Positions 1,481 through 33,568 of a DNA stretch of 64,000 nucleotides are shown in pieces. The notes under the pieces are model-generated. The model was not told the DNA's origin, ran no database searches, and worked only from the letters and a program-made list of their open reading frames with translations. Source of the stretch: an uncultured delta proteobacterium. Lineage in GTDB: Bacteria; Desulfobacterota; Binatia; Binatales; Binataceae. The DNA is taken from contig CAVQAG010000017.1 in NCBI GenBank assembly GCA_963710455.1, forward strand, positions 68,064 to 132,063, in the 5' to 3' direction. Made by a program: the position numbers and the translations under genes. Numbering within the stretch: the first letter of the stretch is position 1; each line of letters opens with the position of its first letter.

Positions 1481-1499
1481 GTCTCTCTCCTTCTTTCCG

Positions 1500-2423: not shown

Positions 2424-2520
2424 CGGCTTCTCCCGTGTTCGGCTCTCCCGTGATCGGTTTGCCCAAGTCCGTCCAATAGCATGTCACGGCTGATACCGAC
2501 TAGCCGCCACTCCAGGTGAT

Positions 2521-4101: not shown

Positions 4102-4123
4102 CGCGGGCGGCTCGCCTGCAGCC

Positions 4124-4834: not shown

Positions 4835-5658
4835 TTGCGGCGCGGACGCTCGATCGGCAGGTCTTCGCGATTGCCCCATTCGCCCCACGACCCGATGTAG
4901 TTGCGGACGCGATCGAACCCCGCGATCCTGAGCGCGTAGTACGCATTGGCCGAGCGATAGCCGCCCTGACAATACGGAACGATTTCGGCTTCTGGACGGA
5001 GCCCCAACTGCTCGAAGGCGGCGCGCAACTCGGCGGACGGCTTGAATGCGCCTGTTGCGGCTACATTGTTGACCCAATCCAGATGGACCGCGCCGGGCAA
5101 TGCTCCCGCCCGCCGCGCGCGTACGCGCTCGCCAAAGTATTCCTCGTCGGTGCGAACATCAAAAATTCGCACGTCAGCATGGCCGAGCCGTTCGACGAGG
5201 TATTCGTTGGAGGCAAAAATCTCCTCGCGGGGCACCGCCACAAACGCGCTTGGCATGATCGGCTCGACCGCGGTAGTCAGTTCCGCGCGCGCGAGTTTCA
5301 AGCCGCCGTCGAGAATACGCACGCGCCGATGGCCCATGTACTCGGCGAGCCACGCCACACGCGTCGCGCGCATCCCGGAGTCGTTTTCATAGCACACCAG
5401 CGTTTCGTCACTGGTGATACCGAGTGCCGAAAAGATCCATTCGAGCTGCGCGCGCAATTCGCGCATCCCGGACTCGCCGGTATCCACGTGGTGAAACGGA
5501 AACGGATCGAAATGCCGCGCGCGAGGCAAATGGCCGGCGCGAAAGTCGGCCGCCGGGCGCGTATCAACCAGCACCACCCTTGCATCCGTGCGATGTTCAG
5601 CGAGCCAGCGCGCGTCGACCAAGATCTCGTTTTGATTTCGCTCTTGTCCAGCCATCAT
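4831..5658 (-). CDS. Two-domain sulfurtransferase (rhodanese/SseA-like)
   Basis: GHLPRA, ILDGG, DVRTDEEY, active-site YCQGGYRS, YIGSWGEW. Confidence 0.9.
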   Translation of the reverse strand: MMAGQERNQNEILVDARWLAEHRTDARVVLVDTRPAADFRAGHLPRARHFDPFPFHHVDTGESGMRELRAQLEWIFSALGITSDETLVCYENDSGMRATRVAWLAEYMGHRRVRILDGGLKLARAELTTAVEPIMPSAFVAVPREEIFASNEYLVERLGHADVRIFDVRTDEEYFGERVRARRAGALPGAVHLDWVNNVAATGAFKPSAELRAAFEQLGLRPEAEIVPYCQGGYRSANAYYALRIAGFDRVRNYIGSWGEWGNREDLPIERPRRK

Positions 5659-5698
5659 GTTCCTCTCATTATCAATATGTGCGGACTGGGAGCATGCA

Positions 5699-6796
5699 TT
5701 ACGACGGTTCGCGCTCTTTGGTTGACGGAGCGCTGCCGACTGCCTGGGCTATCGAATTCAGCCCATCGCGTTGCAGCAATTCCAGTAAGCCTTGCTTGAT
5801 TTGTCGCACCACGTCGGGTCCCTCATAAACCAGCCCCGTGTATAACTCGACCAGGCTCGCGCCAGCGCAAATCAGACCATAGGCGTCCTCAGCGGCGAAA
5901 ACTCCGCCGACGCCAATTATTGGCATCCTGCTGCCGGTGCGGCGGCGAATCTCCGCAACCATCGCGCGCGCTCGCGTCCTAAGCGGCGCTCCGCTTAGCC
6001 CACCCTCGTGCTCCGTCCGCACGCCGACCGCCTCGCGCGCGGTCGTGGTGTTGCAAGCGACCAGACCGTCGACACCGTTTACGGAGACCGCCTCACATAC
6101 TGAGGCGAGCACCGGCGCGTTAAGATCGGGCCCAAGCTTTACCAGCACGGGTCTTCGCGGAGTTAGCTTCACGGCCTCGGCCAGAATTGGACGCATCAGG
6201 GGTGCAAGGCGCGCCGCAGATTGCCAATCGCGCAATCCCGGCGTATTCGGTGAACTCACATTGATCACGATAAAGTCGGCCAGCGGGCCCAGCCGCGTGA
6301 CCAGCGTCGCGTAATCTTCCGCCACGCGCTCCTGCGGCGTGTCCTTGTTGGGCCCAAGGTTCAATCCCAACCGAATATTCAAGCCGCCAGAGCGTAGACG
6401 TTGAAGCTGGCGCACCGCTGCTTCCATCCCCGCGCTTGGAAAGCCCAGGCGATTCACCAGGGCGCGATGCTCGGGCAAACGCCATAAGCGCGGGCGGGGA
6501 TTGCCGGGCTGCGCCAGCGGCGTCACCGTACCTAACTCGGCGAAACCGAAACCCACTGCCTGCCATCCGGCGACCGCGCGTATATCCTTGTCCATCCCGG
6601 CCGCGAGTCCGATCGGATTGGAAAACCGTATGCCCCATGCCGCGACGGCGAGCGCGGGCGGATCGGGCGCCGGCTTGCGCAGCATCGCGAGCGGCCTCAT
6701 CATCGCGATTGTCAATCGATGCGCGCGCTCGGGGTCGAGTTGAAACAGCAGCGGCCGCAGGATGCGGTGGTAGGAGGTCTCGAGGGGCGGCGTCAT
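5699..6796 (-). CDS. pyrD: Quinone-dependent dihydroorotate dehydrogenase (class 2)
   Basis: GLAAGMDK, QPGNPRPRL, NRLGF, NVSSPNTPGLR, GGLSG, IIGVGG. Start taken at the ATG of MTPPLETSY. Confidence 0.93.
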   Translation of the reverse strand: MTPPLETSYHRILRPLLFQLDPERAHRLTIAMMRPLAMLRKPAPDPPALAVAAWGIRFSNPIGLAAGMDKDIRAVAGWQAVGFGFAELGTVTPLAQPGNPRPRLWRLPEHRALVNRLGFPSAGMEAAVRQLQRLRSGGLNIRLGLNLGPNKDTPQERVAEDYATLVTRLGPLADFIVINVSSPNTPGLRDWQSAARLAPLMRPILAEAVKLTPRRPVLVKLGPDLNAPVLASVCEAVSVNGVDGLVACNTTTAREAVGVRTEHEGGLSGAPLRTRARAMVAEIRRRTGSRMPIIGVGGVFAAEDAYGLICAGASLVELYTGLVYEGPDVVRQIKQGLLELLQRDGLNSIAQAVGSAPSTKEREPS

Positions 6797-6932
6797 GACC
6801 GGGAATCTAGGAGTCTCGGCGGCGATCCGCAATGGCAGCGGTAACCGTCTGTTGATGGAGTTGATAATGGCGCCTGCGGCGATTACCTTCCCCGCGCGTG
6901 TGAAATAGACTGTGCATGAGGATGCCAGTGCG

Positions 6933-7772
6933 ATGACGACGACGAATAACGGCCGGGCCGAGATGCAGGTCAAGCTTGTCGACTACGCGAGCGACCCGCT
7001 GGAGAAACTCTATGCGGCGTTCCGCACCTGCTACTCGTCTGATTCGCCGATCGAGGTGTGGGAGAAGATCAGGACGGAAAAGATCAGCCACGAGCGGATT
7101 CGCGAGTTCATCGCGGAGCGTCTCAAGACCGGTCACGCCTCGCCGCTGGAGCAGATCGTGTTCTGGTTCGCGATCTCCGGCGTCTCGCGCTCGCTCTCGC
7201 ATCAGTTCGTCCGCCATCGTATCGGCATCAGCTTTGAGCAGCAGAGTCAGCGCTACGTCAAGTTCAAGCAGGATCGGCTGGCCTTCGTGATGCCCGAATC
7301 GTGGCGCCGCGCCGGAATGGCGGAAGAGTTCGCCGGGTTGCTCGAACGCACCTCGGAGCTCTACGCTCGCGCGCTCAAGGCGGGGATTCCCGCCGAGGAC
7401 GCGCGTTTCGTGCTGCCCAACGCGGCGCCGACGAACTTTCACGTGATGGTGAATTTCGCCGAGATGCTGCATATCTGTGACCTACGTCTGTGCGTGCGCG
7501 CCCAGTGGGAGATCCGGCGGATGGTGGCGATGATGCGGGCGCAGATAAAACACGTGCTGCCGGAGATCGCCGTGTTCCTGCAGCCCAAGTGCGGCGAGAA
7601 CCGAATGGGCTATTGCGACGAGTCGCTTGAGGACTGGCAGAAATGTCCCCTGGGCCGCGTGCGCCCGCACAAGTCCAGCCTGTTTGAACTTTACGAACGC
7701 CACGGCACTCGCAAGGCCGAAGCTCTGGGCGAGACGGAATTCCGCGCAGTGGAAGAGAAGGAACTTCTTTAG
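6933..7772 (+). CDS. thyX: FAD-dependent thymidylate synthase
   Basis: GHASPLEQ, ThyX signature RHRIGISFEQQSQRY, EDARFVLPNA, RAQWEIR. Confidence 0.93.
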   Translation: MTTTNNGRAEMQVKLVDYASDPLEKLYAAFRTCYSSDSPIEVWEKIRTEKISHERIREFIAERLKTGHASPLEQIVFWFAISGVSRSLSHQFVRHRIGISFEQQSQRYVKFKQDRLAFVMPESWRRAGMAEEFAGLLERTSELYARALKAGIPAEDARFVLPNAAPTNFHVMVNFAEMLHICDLRLCVRAQWEIRRMVAMMRAQIKHVLPEIAVFLQPKCGENRMGYCDESLEDWQKCPLGRVRPHKSSLFELYERHGTRKAEALGETEFRAVEEKELL

Positions 7773-7830
7773 TCGAACCCTCTTCACACTCGTGCAACCG
7801 GCGGATAAACCCGCTGGAATCGGAAACTTG

Positions 7831-7855
7831 GCGAATATATTTGAAATATATTTGC
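7831..7855. promoter_or_regulatory. AT-rich near-perfect palindrome upstream of the UDG gene (candidate operator)
   Basis: GCGAATATATTT-G-AAATATATTTGC: 12 bp arms, one mismatch, 1 nt spacer. Confidence 0.4.
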
Positions 7856-7890
7856 GACTAGGTTCGTAACCAAATCCGGAGCCGGGTCGA

Positions 7891-8598
7891 TTGAACGAGG
7901 AATTCGATACGGCATCGAACCGTTTGCGCGTGTTGCGGGCCGCGATGCTCGGCTGTGTGCGATGCGACGCGCTGGTCAGATGCCGCTCGCAAGTGGTGCC
8001 GGGCCACGGCGCAGCGCCGGCGACGGTGGCATTCGTGGGGTTGGCGCCTGGACGCCTCGGCGGCGACCGCACGGGAATTCCATTTAATGGAGACCGTTCG
8101 GGAGAACTCCTGCGCCTGATGATCGCCGGAGCCGATCTGGGCCGCGTCTTCATTACCAATCTGGTTCGGTGCAACCCGCGTGACGAGCGCGGCCGCAACC
8201 GCGATCCCAGCCCGCCCGAGGTAGCCAATTGCCGTGACCACCTGGCGGCCGAGCTTGCCGTGGTCCGTCCGCGAGTCGTCGTCTGTTTGGGGACCGTGGC
8301 CTGGCGCGAGATGGCAGGGCGCAAGGTGCCGTTTCAGCCGCGCCGTCCTGCCCCAGTGAGCGATGGAGGGATACTGCTATATCCTATGTATCATCCGGCT
8401 TATGTCGTGCGCGGCGCTTACCGGACACGGGCATACGCTCGTGATTTTGCGCGGCTCGCAGAGCTGATTCGCTGGTTGGTAGGCTCTCGCAGACAGACTG
8501 GCGCACGATGGGCGAGCGATCTACTCGTTCCAACCGCATTGCGACTTGGGGATGATTTGAAGTCTTCACCATCCTTTTTGACCGGGCTCCGGTCATAA
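7891..8598 (+). CDS. Uracil-DNA glycosylase, Fe-S type (family 5-like GLAP motif)
   Basis: CVRC, GLAPGRLGGDRTGIPF, TNLVRCNP, NC, YHPAY. Confidence 0.85.
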   Translation: MNEEFDTASNRLRVLRAAMLGCVRCDALVRCRSQVVPGHGAAPATVAFVGLAPGRLGGDRTGIPFNGDRSGELLRLMIAGADLGRVFITNLVRCNPRDERGRNRDPSPPEVANCRDHLAAELAVVRPRVVVCLGTVAWREMAGRKVPFQPRRPAPVSDGGILLYPMYHPAYVVRGAYRTRAYARDFARLAELIRWLVGSRRQTGARWASDLLVPTALRLGDDLKSSPSFLTGLRS

Positions 8599-8746
8599 CG
8601 GCCGAATGGTTGAAGCAGTCAGTTTTCGCCGTCCAGCCCGTGCAGTTTGGGCCGGGCGAGATCGGCATCGATGTGCAGTCCGGGCAGGGGTGACGAATGC
8701 GGCGGGCTTAGCCATTCGCCGCAAGTGCGTCCACCTGGCCGGAGCC

Positions 8747-9055
8747 CTAGCGGTCGCGGCCTCCGCCGCCGCCCCCGCCTCCTGGGCGCCGCTCGCGATC
8801 GTTACCACTGCGAGCTTGAGCCTCATTGACGCGAATGGGGCGTCCCTTGATATCTCTGCCGTTGAGCTTTTTGATCGCCGCCTCCGCGGCATCGTCCGAG
8901 GCCATCTCGACGAAGCCAAAGCCGCGGGACCGATTGGTCGCGCGATCGATGATGACCTGGGAACTGTCTACCTTACCCGCCTCCGAGAACGCGTCCTGCA
9001 GATCCTGGTCGGTGACAGTCCAAGCTAAGTTCCCCACATACAGTCTACGGCCCAT
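8747..9055 (-). CDS. RRM RNA-binding protein with Gly-rich tail
   Basis: RNP2 LYVGNL, RNP1 RGFGFVEM, GRPIRVNEA, GGGGGGG tail. Confidence 0.95.
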   Translation of the reverse strand: MGRRLYVGNLAWTVTDQDLQDAFSEAGKVDSSQVIIDRATNRSRGFGFVEMASDDAAEAAIKKLNGRDIKGRPIRVNEAQARSGNDRERRPGGGGGGGGRDR

Positions 9056-9816
9056 TCAGAACTCTCCTACTCACCCTTGCCACCAGATGCTCAGGCGCAT
9101 CGCGCAATTCTGCGCGCCTTCCCTGAGCAAAACGATCGTCGGAATTCTCCAGCGAACCATCCAATCTCAAAAGCGACTATCGCAACGCGCCCGCGTCCAA
9201 AATAGCGTATTTTTTATAGCACCGAGTCAAATCTAAACATAGCGTTACCACAACATGGCGCATTATAGCAGATTGATGTTTTAAGATGCTTTACCGTTTG
9301 CGCGATCGAGCGCTGCGAAGCGTGCGGCCTCGCGACCCGTCACATTCATCGAGCACCGACGGAGAAATGGGTGCGCCTCTTAAGTTGTTCATTCATATCG
9401 CTGTTATCGATCTCGATGAGCGGTGCTACTTCGTATTCCACTAAGCTTGCAGGTGAAGTACTTGGCAGTTTCTTTTCTGGAACGACAGATTCGAATAGCT
9501 CAATCGGAAAGCTCAGAGATCGTACGAGACACTACGACGACGCGACAGTCGCGTTAATAAAGTTTAGCGAAAATCCGCATCGCTCATCGGTCCGAGCTGG
9601 AGCCTGAGTTTCACTTCATTATTCATGCTATTTATGCGACTAAGGTGCGCGCGGATGTATCGTGGCACTCGATATATTGCCGATAGCCATGAACTACTAA
9701 ACGCTGTAGTATGAATGCATATGTTCGGCAAAATGCTTGTGAATCGGATGCCCGTTGTGTAGCGTGATACGGCTTTACGTTTTGCCGAAACGCATTTCGT
9801 TCAAGGAGACTATTGG

Positions 9817-10236
9817 ATGCCACGAAGGAAAGGCTCCGCATCGACTGCGTCCGCTATGCGCCAGGTTCAGCGCCAGGCCGGCGCGGTGCTCGCCAAGTTG
9901 CGCAAAGATATCCGCGCCATGGAAACTGAGCTCGCACGGCTCAAGCATGATGAAGAACTGTGGGGCCGGCTCACCGGACGCGGTAGTGCCGGCCGCGGTG
10001 TTGCACGTGCGCCGCGGGCTGCAAGCGGCGGCGGTGGTGGCGGGGGCGGAGGTGGAGGGCGGATCAATTGGCGCAACGTGCTCGCGCAATTGCCCAAACA
10101 GTTCAAGGCCTCCAATGTTCGCCAGGTGCGCGGACTTAAGGATAAGCGTCCATCGGAAATCTTCGCCGCGATCACTCGCTGGATCGAATCCGGGCTGGCC
10201 AAGCGCAAAACTCGCGGGCTTTACGAAAAATCCTAG
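9817..10236 (+). CDS. Hypothetical basic protein: coiled coil + poly-Gly linker + putative winged-helix DNA-binding domain
   Basis: AAGGAG RBS upstream of ATG. Heptad segment LAKLRKDIRAMETELARLK, long Gly run, C-terminal domain ending KRKTRGLYEK. Confidence 0.7.
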   Translation: MPRRKGSASTASAMRQVQRQAGAVLAKLRKDIRAMETELARLKHDEELWGRLTGRGSAGRGVARAPRAASGGGGGGGGGGGRINWRNVLAQLPKQFKASNVRQVRGLKDKRPSEIFAAITRWIESGLAKRKTRGLYEKS

Positions 10237-10376
10237 CGCGCTTAGCGCGTCAACGGATTCGCATCGCCATTCTCGCGGCAGTGCCGGTGCATGTGCCATC
10301 GCACAACGACACGGTACTGCCGCGGCCTACCCAAGGCGTATCGCACGCAGAAAATATATACTTTTGCTGCGCTGCT

Positions 10377-10405
10377 GCATTCGTGTGAGCAGCTCACACG
10401 GATGC
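10377..10405. promoter_or_regulatory. 29 bp near-perfect inverted repeat upstream of mtnA
   Basis: GCATTCGTGTGAGC-A-GCTCACACGGATGC: 14 bp arms with one mismatch. Confidence 0.5.
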
Positions 10406-10468
10406 GTTCAAAAATTGCCCCAAGGGGAGATGTTCGTCACTGACGTTCCCTGATTCGACTGGTTAGAA

Positions 10469-11506
10469 ATGTCTGTAAATACCATCGAATGGCGCAATGA
10501 CGCGGTCCGCATGATCGACCAGCGCCTGCTGCCGGCTCGCGAGGTCATCCGCGTCTACCGCGATTGGCGGGGCGTCGCCGGGGCGATCCGCACGATGGTG
10601 ATTCGTGGCGCACCTGCGATCGGAGTGGCGGCCGCGATGGGCGTGGCGCTGGGAATTCGCGGATCGAGCGGCGCACGTGCTCGTACGCGCTTCGCCCAAG
10701 TAGCCAAGGGACTCCGCGCGACGCGGCCGACCGCAGTTAACCTGGCTTGGGCGGTCGAGCGGATGGGCCAGGTGGTCGAACGCGGGCTCGGGCTCGACGC
10801 GGCACATCTTTTCCGGCGCCTTCGTGATGAGGCGCTGGCCATTTATGAGGAAGATCTTGCTGCCAACCGTTCGTTGGGCCGCTTCGGCGCGACGCTGCTT
10901 GCGGACCCCGCAACCGTGCTCACGCATTGCAATGCCGGCGCGCTCGCCACCGCGGGCTACGGCACCGCGCTAGGAGTGGTACGCGCCGCGCGAGAGGCGG
11001 GCAAGAAGGTCGTCGTTATCGCGGACGAGACGCGGCCCTTTTTGCAGGGCGCGCGTCTGACCGCATGGGAGCTGCATAAGGACCACATCCCGGTAACGGT
11101 CATTGCCGACAACATGGCGGCTAGCGTAATCCGAAGCGGAGGCGTGAGCTGCGTAGTCGTCGGGACGGATCGTACGGCGGCCAACGGCGACGTCGCTAAC
11201 AAGATCGGGACCTATCCGCTGGCCGTGATGGCCAGGCGCCACGGCGTGCCGTTTTACGTGGCCGCACCGCTCTCTTCAATTGATCTCGAATGCTCGAGCG
11301 GAGCTGAAATTCCGATCGAGGAAAGATCCGCGGACGAAATAACTCATCTCGGAGGCAGGCGGATCACGCCCAAGGGCGTCAAAGTCTTCAATCCGGCTTT
11401 CGACGTAACTCCGGCCGAACTGGTCACTGCGATCATAACCGAACGCGGGATCGCCTATCCGCCATACCAGGAAACCCTGGCTGCGCTCAAAAAACGCACA
11501 GTCTGA
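10469..11506 (+). CDS. mtnA: S-methyl-5-thioribose-1-phosphate isomerase
   Basis: IDQRLLP, IRGAPAIG, RPTAVNL, THCNAGALAT, DETRPFLQGARLT, NKIGT, NPAFDVTP. Confidence 0.95.
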   Translation: MSVNTIEWRNDAVRMIDQRLLPAREVIRVYRDWRGVAGAIRTMVIRGAPAIGVAAAMGVALGIRGSSGARARTRFAQVAKGLRATRPTAVNLAWAVERMGQVVERGLGLDAAHLFRRLRDEALAIYEEDLAANRSLGRFGATLLADPATVLTHCNAGALATAGYGTALGVVRAAREAGKKVVVIADETRPFLQGARLTAWELHKDHIPVTVIADNMAASVIRSGGVSCVVVGTDRTAANGDVANKIGTYPLAVMARRHGVPFYVAAPLSSIDLECSSGAEIPIEERSADEITHLGGRRITPKGVKVFNPAFDVTPAELVTAIITERGIAYPPYQETLAALKKRTV

Positions 11507-11631
11507 GAAAACACCCGCTCGCACATTTTCGTTTGCTCACAAAGATTAGCTACTCTCGGCAGTGAACAGCATGCGGGCTAGTGTAGGCGTCAGATCGTCC
11601 AAATCGTCACTACTCGCGTCAGCTATTCTCG

Positions 11632-12438
11632 TTAGTTGCGCCGGCCAACCGCTCGCGCGAGCCCATCGCCGAGCAGGTTGAAACCCAGCACCGAAGCGCC
11701 GATCGCGACGGCCGGCGCGGTAGTCAGATGCGGCGCCACCAGCAGGAACGTACGCCCGGTGTCGAGCATGTTGCCCCAGCTCGGCGCGGGCGGAAGCACT
11801 CCAAGACCGAGGAAGGACAGCGCGGCTTCGGCTATGATGATTCCGCCGACGCCGAAAGTCGCCTGAACCGCGACCGGGCCAGCCAAGCCGGGCAGCAGAT
11901 GGCGAAAAAGCAAACGGCCGGGCGACGCACCAAGCGCGCGCGCGGCCTCCACGTATTCGCGCTCGCGCAGCGACAACACTTCGCCGCGGACCAGTCTCGC
12001 ATAGCCGGTCCATCCCATCGCGCTCAGCGCTACCACAAGGTCGAGTAGGCCCGGACCCAGAATCGCGGCGAGCGCGATCGCAAGTAGAAAGCCGGGAAAC
12101 GCCAACACGACATCGACCAGGCGCATCACCACCGAGTCGACGCGTCCACCGGCCAGTGCCGAAGCGCCGCCGATGAGGCTGCCGGCGGCGAGCGAGAGCA
12201 TCACCACCGCGGTCGCGACCATCAGCGAAAGACGCGCACCCCACAGGGTGCGAGCAAGCATGTCACGCCCGAGCGCGTCGCATCCTAGCCAGTGGCTCCG
12301 GCCCGGCGGCGCAAGCACTTGGGTGAGATCGATAGCGAGCGGATCGGCATGCACCACGAGCGGCCCCAACGCGGCAGTCAACGCGAGGATCGCGACGATC
12401 GCAGCACCCGCGACGAGTGACAGATTACGCCGCGCCAC
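11632..12438 (-). CDS. Peptide/nickel ABC transporter permease (DppC/OppC-like)
   Basis: HWLGCDALGRD, ARLVRG, EAA loop YVEAARALG, LSFLGLG, PSWG. Confidence 0.9.
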   Translation of the reverse strand: MARRNLSLVAGAAIVAILALTAALGPLVVHADPLAIDLTQVLAPPGRSHWLGCDALGRDMLARTLWGARLSLMVATAVVMLSLAAGSLIGGASALAGGRVDSVVMRLVDVVLAFPGFLLAIALAAILGPGLLDLVVALSAMGWTGYARLVRGEVLSLREREYVEAARALGASPGRLLFRHLLPGLAGPVAVQATFGVGGIIIAEAALSFLGLGVLPPAPSWGNMLDTGRTFLLVAPHLTTAPAVAIGASVLGFNLLGDGLARAVGRRN

Positions 12439-12492
12439 TATCTATTTCCTAAAGCTCGCCGATGTGTCGCAATCAGCATTGCGGGCGTCGGG

Positions 12493-13419
12493 TCAATTGC
12501 GCACGAGGCGAATCCGCGGGTCAACCATGCCGTAGACCAAATCGGTGGCCATGTTGACCGTTACGTAGCTGAGCGCGAAGGTAAGCACGCATCCTTCGAC
12601 CAGCGGATAATCGCGCGCGCTGATCGCGGCGATCAGCAGCCGCCCTATTCCGGGCCACGAAAAGATCATCTCGGTAACGATCGCGCCGGTCAGCAGCGCG
12701 CCAGCCTCGAGACCGAGCAGAGTAATCACCGGCGTCAGCGCGTTGCGCAATCCGTGACGAATCAACGCGTCGAACGCACCAAGCCCCTTGCTGCGCGCGG
12801 TCCGGATATAGTCCGCCTCGCGCACCTGGACGAGACTCTGACGCAGCATCCGCGCCAGGATCGCCGCGAGCGCCGTTCCCAGCGTCACCGCGGGCAGCAC
12901 CAGATGCTCCAAGCCGCCGCGCCCGGTCAGCGGAAACCATCCGAGGTCGAGTGAGAAGACGATCATCATTAACGGGCCGAGGCAAAGATGCGGCACGGAG
13001 ATGCCAAGGATCGCAAAGCTCATCGCACCGACGTCGGCGACGCCGCCGGGATTGGCGCCGGCGATAAGGCCGAGCGGGAAGGCGATGACCATCGCGACCA
13101 GCAGTGCGGCGCCCGCCAACTCCAGCGTGGCGGGGAACCGTTCCGCGATTAACCGCGCCACAGGCTCTTTCATCGAAATCGACTGGCCCAGGTCGCCGCG
13201 CGCAAGTCCCCATAAGAAGCCCGCGTATTGATCCGCGATCGGACGGTCGAGCCCGAGCCCGTGGCGCATCCCAGCGATATCCGCGGGCCCCGCAGTGTCG
13301 CCGAGCATGGCGACCACCGGATCGCCCGGCACGAGATGGATGAGCGCGAAGGTCAGCGTCGCGACGCCCAGCGCGACCGGAACGAGCGCCGCGAGGCGGT
13401 GGACGAAGTAGCCAATCAC
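12493..13419 (-). CDS. Peptide/nickel ABC transporter permease (DppB/OppB-like)
   Basis: PGDPV, GDLGQS, DYIRTARSKGL, RDYPLV, DPRIR. GTG start overlaps the SBP stop. Confidence 0.9.
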   Translation of the reverse strand: MIGYFVHRLAALVPVALGVATLTFALIHLVPGDPVVAMLGDTAGPADIAGMRHGLGLDRPIADQYAGFLWGLARGDLGQSISMKEPVARLIAERFPATLELAGAALLVAMVIAFPLGLIAGANPGGVADVGAMSFAILGISVPHLCLGPLMMIVFSLDLGWFPLTGRGGLEHLVLPAVTLGTALAAILARMLRQSLVQVREADYIRTARSKGLGAFDALIRHGLRNALTPVITLLGLEAGALLTGAIVTEMIFSWPGIGRLLIAAISARDYPLVEGCVLTFALSYVTVNMATDLVYGMVDPRIRLVRN

Positions 13420-15020
13420 CTGCGCGCGCTCCCCGACTCGGGCGTCAGCGACACGGTTGCGAGCGAGCGCAAGCTGCCGTTGGGAAGCGGTATGAAACCA
13501 TTGACGCGGCGATTCATCACTACCACGTTGTCCATCCACCACAACGAGACGTACGGCAGATCCGTGGCGGCGATCTTTTGCACCTCGCCGTAGATCTTGC
13601 GGCGCGCGACGGGATCGAGCGTCACTTCACCCTGCTCCAGCAGACGGTCCATCGCGGGATTCGAGTAGTTACCGCGGTTGGAGCCGTTGGGCGGCGTCAT
13701 TTTCGAATCGAATACCATGAAGTACTGGTGCGTAAGGTCGGTTGCGACCCAATCGAGCGAGGTCAAATCGAAGTTGCCCTTCTGTATATCGCTATAGAAG
13801 GTCGCGAACTCATTGGTCCGTATGTCGAGCGTGATGCCGATGCGCCGCAGCATCGCCTGGATTGCCTCACCAAGCCGCCGTCCCTCCGGCGTGGTTTTGT
13901 ATACGAACTTCAAATCTCGCATCCCGGTTGGGCCGATAGGATAACCGGCCTCGTCGAGCAGCCTGGAGGCCTTGAACGGATCGTATGGATAACGCGTCAC
14001 GTCGCCGCTGTAGGCCCAGTTCTCGGGCGCGAGCATTCCACTCGCGACGCGGGCGGTGCCTTTGTATAACGAGCCGACGATTGCTTCGCGGCTGATCGCG
14101 TAGGCAATTGCCTGGCGCACGCGAAGGTCGCGCAGATGCGGATCGCGGAAGTTGAATTCCAGGTAATAGTATTCGCTTCCCGGCGACTGGTCGATCACGA
14201 GGTCGGGCCGCATTCCGAGATAGCCGAGCAGATCGGGTTGAATATTGTTCTCGGCCAGATCGCAGACGCCCTCGGCAAGCTCCAGCGCGCGAACCGTCGG
14301 ATCGGGAACCACTTTGAAAACAATTCCGGGGATGCCCCCCGGCGTGTTCGCGCGGGCGGGATTGCGCGCGAGGACCAACGACTCGTCATGTGCGAAACTA
14401 ACAATCTCAAACGCGCCGCTGGCCGCCGGCCATCGCGAAGCACCCTTACCGGGCAGCGGCGTTCCGTCTGGCACTACGCCCATCGTCGCCATCTCCAGCG
14501 CCGGCGCATATGGTCCTTTGGTCGTCATCACGACGGTTGCGTCGTCGGGCGCGGCGATAGCAGCGAGCTTCCGCAGCCCGATTCGCTTGGGTGAGACGCT
14601 GGCAGGGTCGAGAATCGAATTGTAGGTATAGATGACGTCGCGAGCGGTGAGCGGCCGCCTGTCGCTGAAGCGCAAGCCGCGGCGCAGATGGAAAACCAGC
14701 CTGGTGGGCGATGGCCGCTCGAAGCTCTCGGCCAGGTCGCCGAAGAAATGTCCGTGCGCGTCGACTCTGACCAGCGAATCGTAGACCAGCTCACCGGTGC
14801 GCGAGGAAATCGCATCAGTTGCGAACCGTGGGTCGAGCGCGATCGGCGACGTTTCGAGGTCAACCTGGAGATAGCCCGATGGAGCGGCTGGCGCCGCGCG
14901 ATGGTGGCCACCGACGGTCCAGACGAACGCTGCGGCGACGAGCGCGATTACCACGGCCACGCGGCCAAGGGCGAAGATCGCACCCGGCCAGGATGCCTGC
15001 CTGCTCGTCGTCTCGCTCAT
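13416..15020 (-). CDS. ABC transporter substrate-binding protein, family 5
   Basis: LDPRFATD, LRRGLRFSDxxPLTARDV, DLRVRQAIAYAI; N-terminal membrane anchor. No ATPase gene adjacent. Confidence 0.9.
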   Translation of the reverse strand: MSETTSRQASWPGAIFALGRVAVVIALVAAAFVWTVGGHHRAAPAAPSGYLQVDLETSPIALDPRFATDAISSRTGELVYDSLVRVDAHGHFFGDLAESFERPSPTRLVFHLRRGLRFSDRRPLTARDVIYTYNSILDPASVSPKRIGLRKLAAIAAPDDATVVMTTKGPYAPALEMATMGVVPDGTPLPGKGASRWPAASGAFEIVSFAHDESLVLARNPARANTPGGIPGIVFKVVPDPTVRALELAEGVCDLAENNIQPDLLGYLGMRPDLVIDQSPGSEYYYLEFNFRDPHLRDLRVRQAIAYAISREAIVGSLYKGTARVASGMLAPENWAYSGDVTRYPYDPFKASRLLDEAGYPIGPTGMRDLKFVYKTTPEGRRLGEAIQAMLRRIGITLDIRTNEFATFYSDIQKGNFDLTSLDWVATDLTHQYFMVFDSKMTPPNGSNRGNYSNPAMDRLLEQGEVTLDPVARRKIYGEVQKIAATDLPYVSLWWMDNVVVMNRRVNGFIPLPNGSLRSLATVSLTPESGSARR

Positions 15021-23991: not shown

Positions 23992-26824
23992 CTATTTGAC
24001 ATAGAACGCTTCGGCCGCGGGGCGATAGGCTCGCGCCAGCCACGTCGGGCGCCGAAGGCCGCCTGGCCCCGGCGCCGCGCGCGTCATCTCGAGCCATCGG
24101 CGATAGACCTCGTGCGATTTGCGCGTATCGACAAAGATGTCGCCGTAACGATCCTGCGGTCCCGCCGTGCTGACCGTCACTTTCTGATGCCAGCAGTGCT
24201 GGCCGCTTATCGGGTCGGGCTGCACCGGAAAAATCAGGTTCTGATGCACGCCGGCGTCCTGCCACCAGATACGGCCCGAGTCCGGATCGGCGCTCTCAAA
24301 CGGTTGCACGCCATGGACCTGCCGCATCATCCAGGTCCCCTCTTTTTTGTGGCTCAACTCGACCAGGCCGCTCGCCCATCGCTCGCCTCCGCTATCTTCC
24401 TTCAGGCGCCAGCGCCCCAGATGATGTGAACAGGCGATCACTCCCGGCCGGATCGATTCGGTTACCCATACCTTGTCGACGAAGTAGCCGATCTCGGTCG
24501 CGATCTTCAGCAGGCCGCCGGTGTCGACGCCGAAACGGCGCGCGTCTTCGGGATGCAGCCACAGCGGGTTGCGATTGGATATTTCATATAGCCATTTGGC
24601 GTTGCCCGATCGAGTATGTACCAGGGTAGGAAGGCGAAAAGTCGGCAGCAGCAGCATCTCGCCGCGCTCCCGATCGATCTTGCTGAAGTGAACCTGGCTC
24701 CTGATATAAGCCGGAACTGAGTACTCGGGCCAATTCCAGTCTTTGAGCGTTTTCGAATAGAACTCGAGCTTGCGCGACGGCGTGGGAAAGCCGGCACAGG
24801 CTCGGCCGTCGATCTCGACCCCAATAGCGGTCCCGCGCTGAGTGATGACCTTGCTCTTAGGATCGATCGCCGCCCCCTTGAGGCCCTCCGCCGAGATTGT
24901 TTTTTCATGAACCCGGTAGGAGCCTTCCTCGATCAGGAAGGCTCCATACTTGCGCATGTACGCCAGCGGGGTGAGCCCTTCCTTCGCCGCCGCCGCGGGC
25001 AGGCCAGGCACGCTGTTCTCGAAAATCCATCGGTAGAAATCTTCGACCGTCAGCTTTCCTCCCGCTCGGTATGGCGACTCGAAGTACTTGCGGATGCCGA
25101 GTGCGCCGTCGGGATCGATTCTCCATGACAGCTCGATCCAGAACTCGTCCTCCTCCCACACCTCGCCGAGTCCGGCCTCGCGATGGGCCTCGTAGGTGAA
25201 CTCGAAGCGCTTGCCCGCGCGCTCCAGCGCGACGCGCGCGACCGGCTGGCGAAAACCGATCCAACGCGCGGCGTGCGTCTCCTGGCTCAGCAGGTCATGG
25301 CGTTCCGGCCCGTGCCCCATCGGCAGGACATAGTCGGCGAATTGCGCGGTCTCGCTCCAGATTGGCGTAAGACACGCGTGTCGCTCGATTTTACTTTCGT
25401 CGGTGAGCGCCTCGATCCAGCTCATCCCGTCGGGATTGGTCCACACCGGATTATAGACGCGGGTGAAGTACGCGCTTAGCTTGCCGCGGCCCTCTTTCAG
25501 AAAATGCGGAAGCAGGAAGCTCATTTCGAAAAACGCGAGGGGGAACTCGAGCGGCCACGTAAGTTTGTTCCAGACCTGGGGCGGCGGCGGCATCATCGGC
25601 GGCGCGGGCACGAACTTGTTAGCCGAGTTGGGCGCGGTGCCGCCAGGCGTGTCGACCGCACCCATCAGGACCACCAGCAGCTCGAGCGCACGCGCCACCT
25701 GCCATCCGCCCAGGTTACCCGCAGCGGCGTTGCGCCATACGTGAGTCGCGAGCGCCGAGCCGGCGCGCCCAATCTCGCGCGCGACCTCGACTATTACGCT
25801 GGCCGACGCGCCCGACTCGCGCTCGGCGAACTCGGGCGTGTATTGGGCGTAGATCTCCCCGAGAACATCCAGAAACGTGTCGAAGGTCTGCGCACGCCCG
25901 GGATGCTCTTCACGCAGGAACTCCTCCCAGTTGACCCAACGGCGCAGGAATTCGCGGTCATACAACTGCTCGCGCAGAATCACGTGGCACATCGCCAGAA
26001 GCACCGCTGCCTCGCTGCCGGGCCACGTCGAGAGCCACCAATCAGCCTTGGTCGCGGTGTTCGAAAGCCGCGTATCGATCACGCAGACCCGGGCTCCGCG
26101 TTGCTTGGCCTCGATAATCCGCTGTGCGTGCGGATTGAAATAGTGGCCGGCCTCGAGGTGCGAGCTGAGCAGGAGAATGAAGCGGGCGTTGGCGTGGTCG
26201 GGCGACGGCCGATCGGCGCCGTGCCAGAACGCGTAACCGGTGCGCGCACCCGCCGAGCACACATTGGTATGGCTGTTGTGCCCATCGATTCCCCAGGCGT
26301 GCAGGGTGCGCTGATTATAAATCAGTTCATGGCCGGGGCGGCCGACATGGTAGAGAATCTCGTTGTGGCGGCCTTCGACCAGCGCACGGCGAATTCGCCC
26401 GGCGAGATCATCGAGCGCGTCATCCCACGTAACACGCTCCCACTTGCCTTCGCCGCGCCGTCCCACCCGCCTCATCGGGTAGAGGATGCGCTCGGGATCG
26501 GTGACCTGGTTGATCGTAGCGGGACCCTTGGCGCAGTTGCGGCCAGCGGCTCCCCGGATGCATCGGGTTGCCTTCGAACTTGCGGATCGTGAAGTCGCGC
26601 TTATCGACGTATCCAAGCAGGCCGCATCCGGCCTCGCAGTTGAAGCAAACGGTGGGAACCAGCGTGTAGCGCTTCTCGACCTTGCGCGGCCACGCGGCTG
26701 GGTCGTACTCGACCCAGTCGTCCCATCGGTCGGCCGGCGGAAACGCGCTCAGCCCACCTGCGGGCGCCTCGAGTTCCGTCGCTGCCGGATTGAGCGGCCG
26801 CATCTGTTCCTTGGTTGGAGCCAT
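23992..26824 (-). pseudogene. Molybdopterin (bis-MGD) oxidoreductase catalytic subunit, split by a 1-nt insertion at ~26545 (pseudogene or sequencing error)
   Basis: Frame 1 has CFNCEAGC...EGNPMHPGSR; frame 2 continues GRNCAKGP...RILYPM...WDDA, HTNVCS, HTRS, LHPEDA. Removing one base restores PGSRGRNCAKG. Confidence 0.85.
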
Positions 26825-28368: not shown

Positions 28369-28542
28369 ACGCGAGTCCTCTGCGCAGACTTAAGCACAGG
28401 GCTTTGCGCAAATCGATGACGAAACCAACTAAAAGATTCCCGCCCCGGGCGAACCCTGTCGCGAATCCGGCGCGGCTCCGTCTTACTACAGGACCGCTGA
28501 AGCAGTTAAACAGTCAAAGAAGTGCGGTCGGCGCGCGCGAGT

Positions 28543-29853
28543 CTACGGTTCCCAGAACGGCACTTCGGTGATCAGAGTCAGGCCGCGGTTGGTATGCGAG
28601 CGCGCGCTCACGGTGCCGCCGTTGGTCTCGGTCAGCGCGCGCGCGATGTACAGCTTCCATCCCATCGAGCCCATCCCCTGGCGATCCTGGATCTGCCGCT
28701 CGAAGAGATGCGAGAACTGCTCGGTGCTCAGTTGCGCGCCGGTATCCTGAACCTCGATTATAACCTTGCCGCCACTCAGGAAGGTGCGCAGCACCACTTC
28801 GCCGCTTTCGGTCCGCTGGATGCCGTTGCTTAGCAGATTGGCCACAATCCGCTCGAGGTGGAGCGGATCGAGGCTGCCACGCGGCATCCCGCCCAACTCG
28901 GTGCGCATCCGCAAGCCCTTTAGCCGCGCTTCGCGACCATAAACGTCGGCTACCTCCTGCACGATGACGTTGGGATCGATCACCCGCGGATGCGGCTGGA
29001 GGTTGTCCTCTTCGAGCAGGTACATATCGAGCACGTTTTTGACCAGCAGGTCCATCGCGCGCGAAGTCGAGCCGACGCGCGCCAATAGATGGGTAGTCTC
29101 CTTTTCGCTGAGCTCGTCCTCTTCAAGTAGCGTGACCAATCCGACCAGGGTAGCCAGCGGATTGCGGATGTCGTGGGTCATCGTGCCAATCTGGCGCTCA
29201 CGGAACTTGGCGGCGGCCGCCAGCTGCTCCATCTGCGCGCGTAGCTTGCCGCGGTAGCGGTCGAGAAATACCGCCGTGAACCACGACAGCACCAGAGCCG
29301 CGACAAAGCCCAGCCATCGAAAGACCGTGTACTGATCGTGCGAAGGTACAGCCAGCTGCGCGGCGCCGAATAGCGCCAGGCAACCCAGGTTCAGCATCCC
29401 CTGCCATCGCGGTCCCCACATCACGAAGGCCGCGGTGGCGAATGGACACAGGATGATCGCGATAAAGGCCAGTTCGGGGCTTTGCCCGAGCGAGGCGATT
29501 CTGATGAACAGCGCGATGATGGTGACGCAGGTAACGAGCGTCCAGGCCTTCCAGTAGCGTCGGAAAACGCTCAGCCAGGTTAACCCGAAGAACAGCGTGA
29601 TTATCGCGAAAGCGGCGTAGTGATACTGGGTCAGGCCATGCTGACCCACTTGCAGCACCACGACGATTCCATACGCGAGCAGAAAAAAAATCGCGATCGG
29701 CCCCGCGACCTTCAGCGTGCTGATGGCCTCGGCGTCGTGATCGATCTCGAGTAGAACGCGGCGGTCAGCCGCTACCGGGCGTCGCGGACTTAGTACGATC
29801 CCTGGCTGCTCGGCGCCGGCTTCCTCGACCGCTATGACCTGCGCTGTTGCCAT
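28543..29853 (-). CDS. Membrane sensor histidine kinase (orphan, atypical G boxes)
   Basis: About 6 TM segments, H-box THDIRNPL, N-box NLLSNG, G1 DTGAQ, G2 GMGSMGWKL. Confidence 0.85.
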   Translation of the reverse strand: MATAQVIAVEEAGAEQPGIVLSPRRPVAADRRVLLEIDHDAEAISTLKVAGPIAIFFLLAYGIVVVLQVGQHGLTQYHYAAFAIITLFFGLTWLSVFRRYWKAWTLVTCVTIIALFIRIASLGQSPELAFIAIILCPFATAAFVMWGPRWQGMLNLGCLALFGAAQLAVPSHDQYTVFRWLGFVAALVLSWFTAVFLDRYRGKLRAQMEQLAAAAKFRERQIGTMTHDIRNPLATLVGLVTLLEEDELSEKETTHLLARVGSTSRAMDLLVKNVLDMYLLEEDNLQPHPRVIDPNVIVQEVADVYGREARLKGLRMRTELGGMPRGSLDPLHLERIVANLLSNGIQRTESGEVVLRTFLSGGKVIIEVQDTGAQLSTEQFSHLFERQIQDRQGMGSMGWKLYIARALTETNGGTVSARSHTNRGLTLITEVPFWEP

Positions 29854-29870
29854 AACCCCCCTGGGGAAGC

Positions 29871-31088
29871 TCAGGCTATAGATTTGCCGATGGCGCGACT
29901 AGCTTCAAGCGCCTCAGCCATGATTTCCATGCCAAAATTCACGTCTTCGGGCTCCATGTTCAGAGGTGGTGCCAGTCTCACTACGCGCTCGGCATTAAGC
30001 GTCCAGTTGACGATCACGCCGCGACTCAACGCTTCGCGCACGAAGGTCTGGGCTGCCTCCCAGCTCCGAAACTCCAACCCTATAAGTGCTCCAACCACAC
30101 GCACTGCCGCAACCTCCGACGAACCCACTTGCAACAGCCGTTGGGCTAATTCGGCGCCAAGTGCGTTTGCTTGCTCCCAGAGTCGCTGGTTGACGATGAC
30201 CTCGAGCGCCGCAAGTCCCGCCGCACACGACAGGGGATGTCCGCCGAAGGTCGTGATATGCCCGAGCGGCGGATCGTGCGCGAGTTCTCCGATCAGCTGC
30301 TGGGAACCGCAAAACGCCCCCAATGGCAGTCCCCCGCCCAACGCCTTGGCCATCACGACAAGATCGGGCACCACTCCAAAATGTTCCATCGCGAACAGCC
30401 GCCCCGTGCGGCCCATCCCGGTCAATACTTCGTCATAGATCAATAGCGCGCCCATTTGGTCGCATCGCTGCCGAAGCCCGCGCATGAAGGCGGTGGACGG
30501 GACGCGCACTCCGCCCTCGGCTTGCACCGGCTCGACTACCACCGCGGCGACCGTCGAATCGATCGCTTTCAACGCGGCGGCGTCGTCGTATGGCAGATGG
30601 CTCACCGGGCCCGGCAACGGTTCGAACGGCGCGCGAAACACAGGGTTTCCCATCAGCGCCAGCGCGCTCATCGTGTCGCCGTGATACGCGCCGTCGAAGG
30701 CGACGAAGCGCGCGCGGCGGGTGTGCTTGCGCGCCGTCTTGAGCGCGCCCTCGATCGCTTCGGCGCCGCTGTTGGTGAAATAGACGCACTTAAGCGGGGG
30801 CGGCAATAATTCCGCCAGACGCTCGGCGAGCCGCACCTGCGCTTCAATAACGTATTCCCCGTAGACCATCACGTGCAGATGGCGGCGAGCCTGCGCGGCG
30901 ATTGCGTCGAGCACCGCGGGATGTCCGTGCCCTAGCGCCGACACGCCGATTCCGGCGATCAAATCGAGATAACGGCGCCCATCGGCGGTGTACAGCCACG
31001 AACCCTCGGCGCGTATGATCTCGAGACCGATTGGCGACGGAGAGGTCTGCGCGAGATGGCGCAGAAAGCTATCGCGCAGCGCGTTCAT
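29871..31088 (-). CDS. Class-III PLP aminotransferase (ArgD/omega-transaminase-like)
   Basis: LGHGHP, NSGAEAIEGALK, EPVQAEGG, DEVLTGMGRTG, MAKALGGG, TTFGG. Confidence 0.9.
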   Translation of the reverse strand: MNALRDSFLRHLAQTSPSPIGLEIIRAEGSWLYTADGRRYLDLIAGIGVSALGHGHPAVLDAIAAQARRHLHVMVYGEYVIEAQVRLAERLAELLPPPLKCVYFTNSGAEAIEGALKTARKHTRRARFVAFDGAYHGDTMSALALMGNPVFRAPFEPLPGPVSHLPYDDAAALKAIDSTVAAVVVEPVQAEGGVRVPSTAFMRGLRQRCDQMGALLIYDEVLTGMGRTGRLFAMEHFGVVPDLVVMAKALGGGLPLGAFCGSQQLIGELAHDPPLGHITTFGGHPLSCAAGLAALEVIVNQRLWEQANALGAELAQRLLQVGSSEVAAVRVVGALIGLEFRSWEAAQTFVREALSRGVIVNWTLNAERVVRLAPPLNMEPEDVNFGMEIMAEALEASRAIGKSIA

Positions 31089-32398
31089 CGTGCCGCACCG
31101 CGCAGCAGTTCAAGCATCGCGCCGCCCCCGTGGGGCCAGTCCAGTGGCGGCGATTGCATCCGCCCCGGCTCGCATACGTACGAGACTCCGAGCAGACGCA
31201 AGCCGGCCTCGAGGCCGGGACGAACCCCAGCCGGGGCCGATAAGGCGAAGGCTTCCAGTCGTCCGGCGGCCGCGCCCAGGCGCTCGCCGAGTTCGTCCGC
31301 GCTTTGAAGCGCACTGACGAACACGGTGCGATAGCCGGGAGAAGCAGAAAAGTCCGCGGCGCCATCGTAAATGACCGTCCATGTCATAGATGTGGTCATG
31401 GATGCGGTTATGGGTTCGCCCTCCCAAAGCGCGACGTCATAGCCGCGACCGCCACCCGCATCCTGTGCAAGCGCCCGCCATCGCACCCGCTCGCGCAACG
31501 CCCGGATTGCCGCGGCGGCCTCCAGTGGAAGCCGCGGTGGCGCCGGCAAGCGGCCCGCCAAGTGCGCCAGTGCGCTGGCAAGGCGCGCGGCAGAGCTGCG
31601 CGCCTCGCTCGCGGCGCCCACCACGAAGACGTGATGCGCCGAGAGACATCCGCGCTGCTCGAAGAGGGTCACGTCACGGGCGAGTCCGTTCGCGGCCGCC
31701 TCGGTGGCGGAAGGACTTGCCCCGGGCGCGACCAGCGCACCGCTTAGCTGGCTGCCGAAGCCAACAAATGGGCGCGCGCCGCGCCCTGCGGCAGCCGCGC
31801 TCAGCGCTGCGATGGAGGCGTCATCGCCATAGGCGACAACGCCTCCATCGCAGGCAGCCCACAACTCACGCATCGCGGCATCGTCGCCGCGGGCGAAATT
31901 AACTACCGCGACGCGCGCCGCAACGGTCGCATCGACTTCAGCAAGCGTGCGCACGAAATTGGCGAAAAACAACTGCTCGCTGCTCGCAGTTTTGATTAGC
32001 AATCCGGCTCCGGCCAGCAGCGCCGCACAGACTTCGTGGATGCCGGCTCCCGGAACATTGCCCGGCATGAGAAAGCCGAACAGGCGATTTGCGCGGGGCA
32101 CTGTCGCGGCAAGTGACTTGAGGGACGTGACCGTGATGGGATCGAGCAACGCATCGAGCGATTCGTCCAGCAACGCGGTCGCCATTCCCAGGGCCGACGC
32201 CAGTCGCGCGACCGTCTCGTGGCGTCGCGCGAACTCGCGTCGGCCCCAAAGTTCGGCTGTCTGGCCGAGCGCCGCAACCGTGCGCTCGCTAATGCATCGC
32301 TCGGCGCTTCGGATGCGCCTTGCGGACTGCGTTATCGAGGCGATCGTGGAAACCGATGCCGGCGCATCGGTGGTACCCGGTATGGTAGCGGGATTCAT
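31085..32398 (-). CDS. LuxC-like acyl-CoA/acyl-protein reductase
   Basis: PGNVP, K-x-A-S-S, VAYGDD, catalytic EQRGCLSAH, GRMQSPPLDWPHGG. Confidence 0.8.
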   Translation of the reverse strand: MNPATIPGTTDAPASVSTIASITQSARRIRSAERCISERTVAALGQTAELWGRREFARRHETVARLASALGMATALLDESLDALLDPITVTSLKSLAATVPRANRLFGFLMPGNVPGAGIHEVCAALLAGAGLLIKTASSEQLFFANFVRTLAEVDATVAARVAVVNFARGDDAAMRELWAACDGGVVAYGDDASIAALSAAAAGRGARPFVGFGSQLSGALVAPGASPSATEAAANGLARDVTLFEQRGCLSAHHVFVVGAASEARSSAARLASALAHLAGRLPAPPRLPLEAAAAIRALRERVRWRALAQDAGGGRGYDVALWEGEPITASMTTSMTWTVIYDGAADFSASPGYRTVFVSALQSADELGERLGAAAGRLEAFALSAPAGVRPGLEAGLRLLGVSYVCEPGRMQSPPLDWPHGGGAMLELLRGAAR

Positions 32399-32422
32399 CT
32401 GGGGCAGAAGATTCGCCGCTTG

Positions 32423-33568
32423 CTACCGCGCGTCTCTGCTCTCTCGCGCGGCAAACTGCTCAATCGCGAGAGCGCAACCGCGCGCGTCACTGTCTTCCGC
32501 CCGGCCGAGCACTGTGACCGTTCCGTCCTTTACGATTCCTAGGTCTCCGGTCAGGATCGCCGACACCGACCCGACGTTGGCCAGGTCGAAAAACCGCAGC
32601 AGGCCGGGATTACCATCCGGAACGCGCTTGAGAGTGGATGGATCGACCGCCGCGACATCGAGCCAGGGCGGTCCCAGTTTGGGGTGCTGATCCAGACGAT
32701 TGTCGGACGAATCGATGCGCCGTGAGTCGCTCGAGCCGCGAAGATGCGGAGCGTTGAACGATGTCGCATCGTAAAGTTGCGAGCACATCTCTGTCATTCC
32801 GTATTCGTTGATCGCCATCGTGGGATCTAGCCCGAGTAGCGCCTGCGCCTGCTCGACCACTTCGCCGGGACGGAGCGGGATGGCTTGTCCCTTGGCGCCG
32901 CCGGTGTCCATCAGACGCGAACCCGGCGCAAGCGCAAGCCTCGAGCGCTGCGAACGCAATTGCTCGAACAACGCTGCAAGCGCAGCCGTGGTTGCCATCA
33001 CACAGACCGGCTGGCACTGGCGCTCGGCCGTGCGCAAAAATTCCAGCGCCGAGCCGATTTCGACGCCCTTGCGATCGGCCACGCAAAGCACGTCGTTGCC
33101 ACCAAACTCCTCGATCATCCAGCTTATCATTTGCGCCAGCGAGGACTCCGGCATCCGTTCGGCGGTCGGATGAAGGCTGAGCATCCGCGTCCTAACGCCA
33201 TCGGGGAAGAGCATCGTTCTTAGATGGCCCAGGGCTGAGGCACGGTAGACGTCGAGGCGAGGCACGCGATGGCGCCCACGTTCGTCACGGCCCGCGGTCG
33301 TGCCGCTGGTCATGAACACGCGAGCGTCCTGGGGCTTTCCGGGTGTAACCGTATCGGTCAGCTCAGCGTATTTGAACGCGGCAGTGCTCAAAGCCGGAAT
33401 CTGGTCCAGCGAGCACACGTCGTCCGAATGGACCCCGCGAGCCAGGCAATAAAGTCGGTAGGGCGCGATCGAGCCGAACTGATGGCGAAAAACGTCGAGC
33501 GTAAGGCTCTCAAAGCGTGTCTGTTCAGGTGTATGGATAAAGGCGAGGACTTGCTCGTAGATCGCCAT
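32423..33568 (-). CDS. LuxE-like acyl-protein synthetase
   Basis: FMTSGTT adenylation loop, DTGGAKG, NEYGMTEMCSQ, DLANVGS, TGDLG, C-terminal RGC. Confidence 0.82.
   Translation of the reverse strand: MAIYEQVLAFIHTPEQTRFESLTLDVFRHQFGSIAPYRLYCLARGVHSDDVCSLDQIPALSTAAFKYAELTDTVTPGKPQDARVFMTSGTTAGRDERGRHRVPRLDVYRASALGHLRTMLFPDGVRTRMLSLHPTAERMPESSLAQMISWMIEEFGGNDVLCVADRKGVEIGSALEFLRTAERQCQPVCVMATTAALAALFEQLRSQRSRLALAPGSRLMDTGGAKGQAIPLRPGEVVEQAQALLGLDPTMAINEYGMTEMCSQLYDATSFNAPHLRGSSDSRRIDSSDNRLDQHPKLGPPWLDVAAVDPSTLKRVPDGNPGLLRFFDLANVGSVSAILTGDLGIVKDGTVTVLGRAEDSDARGCALAIEQFAARESRDAR

Follow-up and report, generated by a model that had tools for sequence, protein, structure and literature searches.

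Which reaction do luxE-like and luxC-like genes serve when an aminotransferase gene, and no luciferase gene, accompanies them? The question is raised by a stretch of 64,000 nucleotides, called the window in the following, from an uncultured delta proteobacterium (class Binatia, family Binataceae; GenBank assembly GCA_963710455.1, contig CAVQAG010000017.1, positions 68,064 to 132,063). It holds an operon of a luxE-like gene, a luxC-like gene, a gene for a class III pyridoxal 5'-phosphate (PLP) aminotransferase and a gene for a membrane histidine kinase (Table 1). Class III PLP enzymes convert aldehydes to amines. In LuxE/LuxC chemistry, an acid is adenylated, the acyl group is transferred between two Cys residues, and its reduction gives the aldehyde (PMC9157457, PMC12041015). 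A sequence-only reading of the window had proposed that the operon turns a fatty or other carboxylic acid into a primary amine. The order of acid, aldehyde and amine is supported by our analysis, which also shows the aminotransferase to be a dedicated enzyme distinct from ArgD. A fatty acid as substrate found no support, as gene distribution and clustering point towards 7-carboxy-7-deazaguanine (CDG), the product of QueE. We consider it likely, and with considerable confidence, that the luxE-luxC-aminotransferase module converts CDG to 7-aminomethyl-7-deazaguanine (preQ1) and thereby replaces QueC and QueF, an assignment of substrate and product that is drawn from genome context.

Results and Discussion

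The four genes, their motifs and their spacing could be confirmed by open reading frame coordinates and Pfam scans. A gap of 24 bp separates the luxE-like from the luxC-like gene, the latter shares an ATGA overlap with the aminotransferase gene, and 17 bp follow before the kinase gene. Only the first three genes form a conserved unit. Of the 61 genomes of the class that were compared, 56 have the aminotransferase, 55 luxC and 54 luxE, and 54 have all three; none of the three genes was found in five genomes, and two genomes, affected by contig ends or incomplete assembly, have only part of the triad. A synteny comparison showed the triad to be contiguous in 32 of 39 relatives with fetched loci, so that the linkage is not due to chance. 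Fusions were observed as well: the three genomes of one family all carry a luxC-aminotransferase fusion (853, 824 and 824 aa), and a luxE-luxC fusion occurs in three Binataceae genomes, in one of which (L065) it is cut by the locus end.

The distribution of the triad in the class is complementary to that of the established preQ1 genes. Canonical QueC or QueF was found in none of the 56 carriers. Strong matches to QueC (245–258 bits) and to QueF (110–123 bits) are confined to the same four genomes (G018, G038, G046, G054), all of them free of the triad; G018, a member of the Binataceae, combines QueC and QueF with a different type of QueE. Weak QueF matches (21–28 bits) in carriers proved to be FolE. 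QueE of one of several types is present in 54 of the 56 carriers; an initial search had missed it in 14 of the 61 genomes through subfamily divergence, and the other types were then found.

The same pattern emerged in Bacteroidota, where 201 genomes, each at least 90% complete, were sampled. The LuxE-like protein and the aminotransferase subfamily occur in an identical set of 87 genomes, mostly at unlinked loci, and the LuxC-like protein in all of these and seven more. QueF was detected in 104 genomes and QueC in 103. The overlap of QueF with the 87 carriers consists of one genome, G263 (66 bits; L241:6600-7037), whose protein has no Cys after the EFT motif. Three QueC matches in carriers (84–118 bits) were rejected as QueC: they lie in island-like regions next to a sugar-kinase-like gene (identified by eye), and the two that were scored lack YxQxHxxE. 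QueE is present in 86 of the 87 carriers. All 183 QueE-positive genomes possess one of the two routes, and the 11 genomes with neither route are all without QueE. In total, a switch between the triad and QueC/QueF is seen within the Binataceae, within the class and within Bacteroidota.

Physical clustering points in the same direction. In G082 and G156 the genes queD-queE-luxE-luxC follow one another in this order, overlapping or separated by a few bases; in G192 queE directly precedes luxE. When viral contigs were searched with the LuxE alignment, two loci came up, represented by 11 contigs of two lineages (one contig, and ten that are near-identical); 50,697 annotated phage records contained no luxE match. 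Both phage lineages show queD, folE, a gene similar to those of tRNA-guanine transglycosylase (TGT) and DpdA, an exonuclease gene, queE, luxE, luxC and the aminotransferase gene in this order, with interruptions after queD and folE, among replication genes. They share folE, queD, queE and the TGT/DpdA-like gene in a replication context with the published phage clusters dpdA-folE-queD-queE-queC(-queF) (PMC6884629, PMC10516641) and differ in having the triad after queE, with queC and queF not found in the stretch examined. The TGT/DpdA-like gene gives a sub-threshold DpdA match, and 17% of the members of its Atlas cluster carry DpdA. The best fold matches of its structure model, which is of modest quality (pLDDT 63), are TGT structures with a TM score of about 0.4. 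The clusters are candidates for preQ1 modification of DNA (dPreQ1). In the second phage lineage an amidoligase-like gene is also part of the cluster.

Queuosine precursors are made by bacteria only. The genome from which the window originates (source genome) encodes FolE (recognised by translation), QueE, adjacent QueA and Tgt, and QueG, together with all four tRNAs with GUN anticodons. The scores of queA, tgt and queG, which were examined in this genome only, exceed their cut-offs. The Tgt keeps the motifs LDEC and GLAVGE, which, read by motif, would correspond to the Cys158/Val233 pair that characterises preQ1-using enzymes (PMC3660597).

Several observations weigh against a role of the triad in preQ1 formation or limit the evidence for it. 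The Fisher test for the association in Bacteroidota (p = 3.5e-43) overstates its strength because the genomes are related and not independent. In the class, G056 (93% complete), the fifth triad-free genome, has a QueE-like gene and neither route. No QueE was found in three genomes that carry the triad (G009, G058, G208). Seven Bacteroidota keep the luxC-like gene without luxE or the aminotransferase and also have QueC and QueF; the one copy inspected shows the catalytic Cys motif. The que genes of G067 form one cassette, which fits a displacement that left luxC behind, and a second role of the LuxC-like protein is possible. The LuxE-like protein has relatives (32–37% identity) that belong to another module, one lacking an aminotransferase, and therefore the LuxE-like gene alone is no marker of the triad. 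For the phages, the absence of QueC and QueF matches covers 16–21 kb around the loci, the rest of the contigs being outside the search.

Two further points of this kind concern the source genome (88.55% complete). Its queE (L098; G000:C10:207560 onward) has one extra base compared with a near-identical intact relative of 217 codons; as four other relatives are intact as well, an assembly error is likely. Its sole protein of the 6-pyruvoyltetrahydropterin synthase (PTPS) family (L094:1417-1959, identical to G000:C11:294626-295168) contains ExxHGH, a folate-type motif (PMC5041015), and not the CxxxHGH of QueD. All 80 metagenomic relatives are of the ExxHGH type, with no que or folK match nearby. 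Neither canonical QueD, searched for in this genome only within the class, nor FolB was found in the assembly; therefore the one PTPS protein may function in both pathways, or else the assembly lacks a gene.

The remaining point is a divergent QueC-like protein with a PP-loop and four Cys, which is encoded in 41 of the 56 carriers of the class. It leads to the alternative that fares best, namely that the triad acts in deazaguanine metabolism with nucleic-acid-bound CDG or the product of the QueC-like protein as substrate, or that its product is not free preQ1. The lack of a canonical QueD in the source genome is in line with this alternative, and the distribution as such fixes neither substrate nor product. 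The QueC-like protein contains SGGxDS and has FPDA in place of YPDC, and the two copies scanned reach 82–84 bits at a cut-off of 150. The nine copies checked all lack YxQxHxxE as well as the Tyr that follows the first Cys in the zinc-binding region, two features tied to QueC function (PMC13329287). At E 1e-10, 15 of the 56 carriers have no QueC-like match, and G018 contains the protein beside canonical QueC and QueF, so that it appears to have a separate function. Further, the preQ1-type residues of the host Tgt and the co-occurrence of the module with tRNA enzymes and with the phage TGT/DpdA-like gene suit the free base. Altogether we regard this alternative as unlikely.

For the conversion of CDG to free preQ1, the LuxE-like and LuxC-like proteins, both single-copy in the source genome, bring the appropriate residues. 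LuxE of Photobacterium phosphoreum (PDB 7XC6) is the sole credible PDB sequence match of the LuxE-like protein (E 6e-16), and the alignment includes Arg356 and Cys365. K226, R356 and C365 are invariant in 29 orthologues, the equivalence of K226 to LuxE Lys238 being based on the TGGxKG motif only. Similarly, LuxC of 7XC6 is the only credible solved relative of the LuxC-like protein; Cys251 aligns with its catalytic Cys and is, like N114, invariant in 28 orthologues. The structure model of the LuxE-like protein (pLDDT 89) resembles PaaK-type adenylating enzymes most closely. As a clue to the substrate this search was uninformative, because luminous LuxE itself is compared with PaaK. A selenocysteine in luxE of the relatives was also considered and rejected: in 26 loci the in-frame TGA codons are ordinary stops and the Cys has a plain Cys codon. 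In Pfam and NCBIfam scans none of the triad proteins showed homology to QueC (PP-loop/zinc) or QueF (T-fold).

The homology to the P. phosphoreum LuxC-LuxE pair, in which the acyl-carrying LuxE Cys with its preceding Arg and the catalytic LuxC Cys are shared (PMC9157457), is accompanied by clear differences. The NCBIfam equivalog cut-offs of luminous LuxE and LuxC are far from being reached (66.2 of 550 and 43.1 of 750 bits), LuxD and a linked luciferase are absent, the genes are coupled or fused to an aminotransferase gene, and the predicted substrate is heteroaromatic. That luxA, luxB and luxD are missing from the window, as stated in the first reading, was borne out. The LuxD family (PF02273) has no match in the source genome, and the 91 genome-wide matches to the luciferase-like monooxygenase family (PF00296), a family-level count that does not extend to the identity of individual LuxA or LuxB proteins, include none within the window (contig C17:68064-132063).

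Long-chain acids are the substrates of LuxE and LuxC (PMC9157457), and in tambjamine biosynthesis TamA/TamH and TabE/TabA form dodecylamine by reduction followed by transamination (bioRxiv 2025.08.11.669332). A fatty or other acyl acid could accordingly be converted to an alkylamine lipid or signal, comparable to the tambjamine tail, with the kinase sensing the product. A gene similar to those of short-chain dehydrogenases/reductases (SDR) or enoyl reductases, which 7 of 40 loci have close to the triad, would suit such a pathway. It leaves unexplained the mutual exclusion with QueC and QueF, the dependence on QueE and the phage runs of queE-luxE-luxC-aminotransferase; moreover, LuxD is lacking. 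Neither an acyl carrier protein nor a pyrrole cluster was found among the neighbouring reading frames of the window or among the genes that recur around 40 loci; 17 proteins from these loci were family-scanned.

The proposed sensor is not conserved either. In tblastn maps of the loci, the kinase gene adjoins the triad at 14 of the 19 Binataceae loci and at none of the 21 loci that come from other families (20 genomes). It is probably co-transcribed with the triad here and is probably a lineage-limited passenger outside the pathway, so that its proposed role as a product sensor finds no support. Taken together, the alkylamine pathway is very improbable. The kinase itself has a degenerate G2 box (GMGSMGW in place of GxGLG), no adjacent response-regulator gene, and a membrane region in common with two paralogues.

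The aminotransferase belongs to a subfamily of its own, common to the class and Bacteroidota and recognisable by the motifs QTS, VYGE and GHxTTFGG; K248 and D219 are invariant in 20 orthologues. Compared with the 25 best NCBIfam models, it reaches the cut-off of none. The source genome has a separate argB-argD-argF-argG run; with TIGR00707 (cut-off 410 bits), the argD of this run reaches 496 bits and the window gene 352. In a quick tree, 23 rows of the subfamily lie on one side of a branch (SH-aLRT 93), apart from the ArgD of the source genome. The window aminotransferase is thus not ArgD, and the argD of the genome lies elsewhere. It contains HGDT at the position of HGRT in the ArgD of the source genome. 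The Asp was discarded as a family marker, as members from Bacteroidota have HGS or HGN; because phage members have HGR, the residue is not diagnostic. An amino-acid semialdehyde route to ornithine, lysine or polyamines in which the enzyme would serve as ArgD or as a diamine transaminase, and which ArgD, LysJ and putrescine aminotransferase as best NCBIfam and PDB sequence matches might suggest, can practically be dismissed in view of the separate arg run, the scores under every cut-off shown, the HGDT/HGRT difference with the restriction just given, and a triad distribution that tracks the que genes.

For the preferred conversion of CDG to preQ1, a sequence of three steps can be formulated. 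The LuxE-like protein is predicted to activate CDG by adenylation with ATP and would hold the acyl group as a thioester on Cys365. The LuxC-like protein would take it over on Cys251 and, after reduction with NAD(P)H, is predicted to release 7-formyl-7-deazaguanine. Transamination of this aldehyde by the PLP aminotransferase is then predicted to yield preQ1, which would be used by Tgt, QueA and QueG.

The module would occupy the same slot between QueE and Tgt as QueC and QueF (PMC13329287, PMC13740343). Both systems would activate the carboxylate of CDG with ATP and reduce it to the aminomethyl group. They are not homologous, and the triad would proceed via thioester and aldehyde, with PLP passing on nitrogen that an amino donor supplies; unlike QueC and QueF, it would require no amide, nitrile or free ammonia. 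In the passages on QueF, 7-formyl-7-deazaguanine appears solely as a breakdown product seen with mutants (PMC13740343). EhpF/EhpG of phenazine synthesis may be a precedent for reducing a heteroaromatic acid, although the passages of PMC3175449 do not give this chemistry. The logic from acid or thioester to aldehyde and amine is shared with the tambjamine modules TamA/TamH and TabQ/TabE/TabA, in which TabA is an example of a transaminase for the last step (bioRxiv 2025.08.11.669332). A reductase and a transaminase in one polypeptide, seen in three relatives of the triad, are possible there as well. The tambjamine modules differ by their acyl carrier proteins, C12 chains and location in antibiotic clusters, whereas the triad comes without a carrier protein and gives the impression of a housekeeping function present in single copy. 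Our literature search found nothing that links LuxE, LuxC or the aminotransferase to preQ1 synthesis; subscription journals were poorly covered, and a prior report is possible.

The surroundings of the triad vary. Just upstream of luxE, a small tetratricopeptide repeat (TPR) protein (e.g. L045:17081-17740) is encoded in 12 of the 21 loci outside the Binataceae (L032-L052), and its gene is often accompanied by an uncharacterised 90-aa gene and an SDR reductase gene. In the window, a molybdopterin oxidoreductase gene downstream of the operon (23992-26824) is split into the frames 26420-26824 and 23992-26616, where a relative has one frame of 947 aa. This frameshift and that in queE are likely assembly errors. 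Terminator-like sites numbered 8, compared with 4.8 ± 2.5 in shuffled sequences, and Rfam at gathering score revealed no riboswitch in the window or in five loci.

The module that contains the LuxE-like relatives mentioned above is a sister luxE-luxC module on plasmids of Azospirillum, Pantoea and Priestia, without an aminotransferase, with an SDR gene, and with an ABC transporter in two of the three regions. It adjoins guaC in Priestia and lies near an NADPH-dependent F420 reductase in Azospirillum; 28 plasmid records match. As a guess, it might serve the import of a heterocyclic acid and its reduction to the alcohol.

Table 1. Location of the operon and of related genes and clusters. Plain numbers are positions in the window; handles with G, C and L denote genomes, contigs and loci.
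Feature	Location	Strand	Characteristics
luxE-like gene	32423-33568	minus	381 aa; TSGTT, EYGMTE, terminal RGC; Pfam LuxE 51 bits
luxC-like gene	31085-32398	minus	437 aa; QRGCLS; Pfam LuxC 149 bits
Class III PLP aminotransferase gene	29871-31088	minus	405 aa; Aminotran_3 349 bits
Membrane histidine kinase gene	28543-29853	minus	436 aa; HisKA and HATPase_c
Terminator-like hairpin 3' of kinase gene (weak)	28439-28453	minus	near chance level
Divergent QueC-like genes	G000:C13:772783-773385; C17:987377-987979; L076-L083		
Lone luxC-like genes	L260:5215-6273; L261:5867-6934; L262:5693-6775; L264:5412-6464		
Phage clusters	L355 and L356-L365 (viral contigs), about 1200-11300		queD, folE, TGT/DpdA-like, queE, triad
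Sister luxE-luxC module	L272 (NC_016586.1) 8025-13866; L274 (NZ_CP137803.1) 6556-13819; L273 (NZ_CP102605.1) 7986-11378		

Conclusion

Genomes with tgt, queA and queG/H that lack queF have been classed as preQ1 salvagers, about 25% of species, with Bacteroidetes among the main sinks (PMC10570037). If the proposed conversion holds true, part of this group would be producers. The triad would also provide a function for three widespread families that are misannotated as long-chain acyl ligase, acyl-CoA reductase and acetylornithine aminotransferase, and it would explain luxCE-like genes without luciferase. From a chemical point of view, it would constitute a cascade that turns a heteroaryl acid into an amine without a carrier, and phage DNA modification would gain a further route. 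Overall, it appears quite probable that a second, nitrile-free de novo route to preQ1 operates in most of the class, in about four of ten of the Bacteroidota sampled and in some phages, which would use it to place preQ1 in DNA, and that many supposed scavengers of this base would in fact be its producers.

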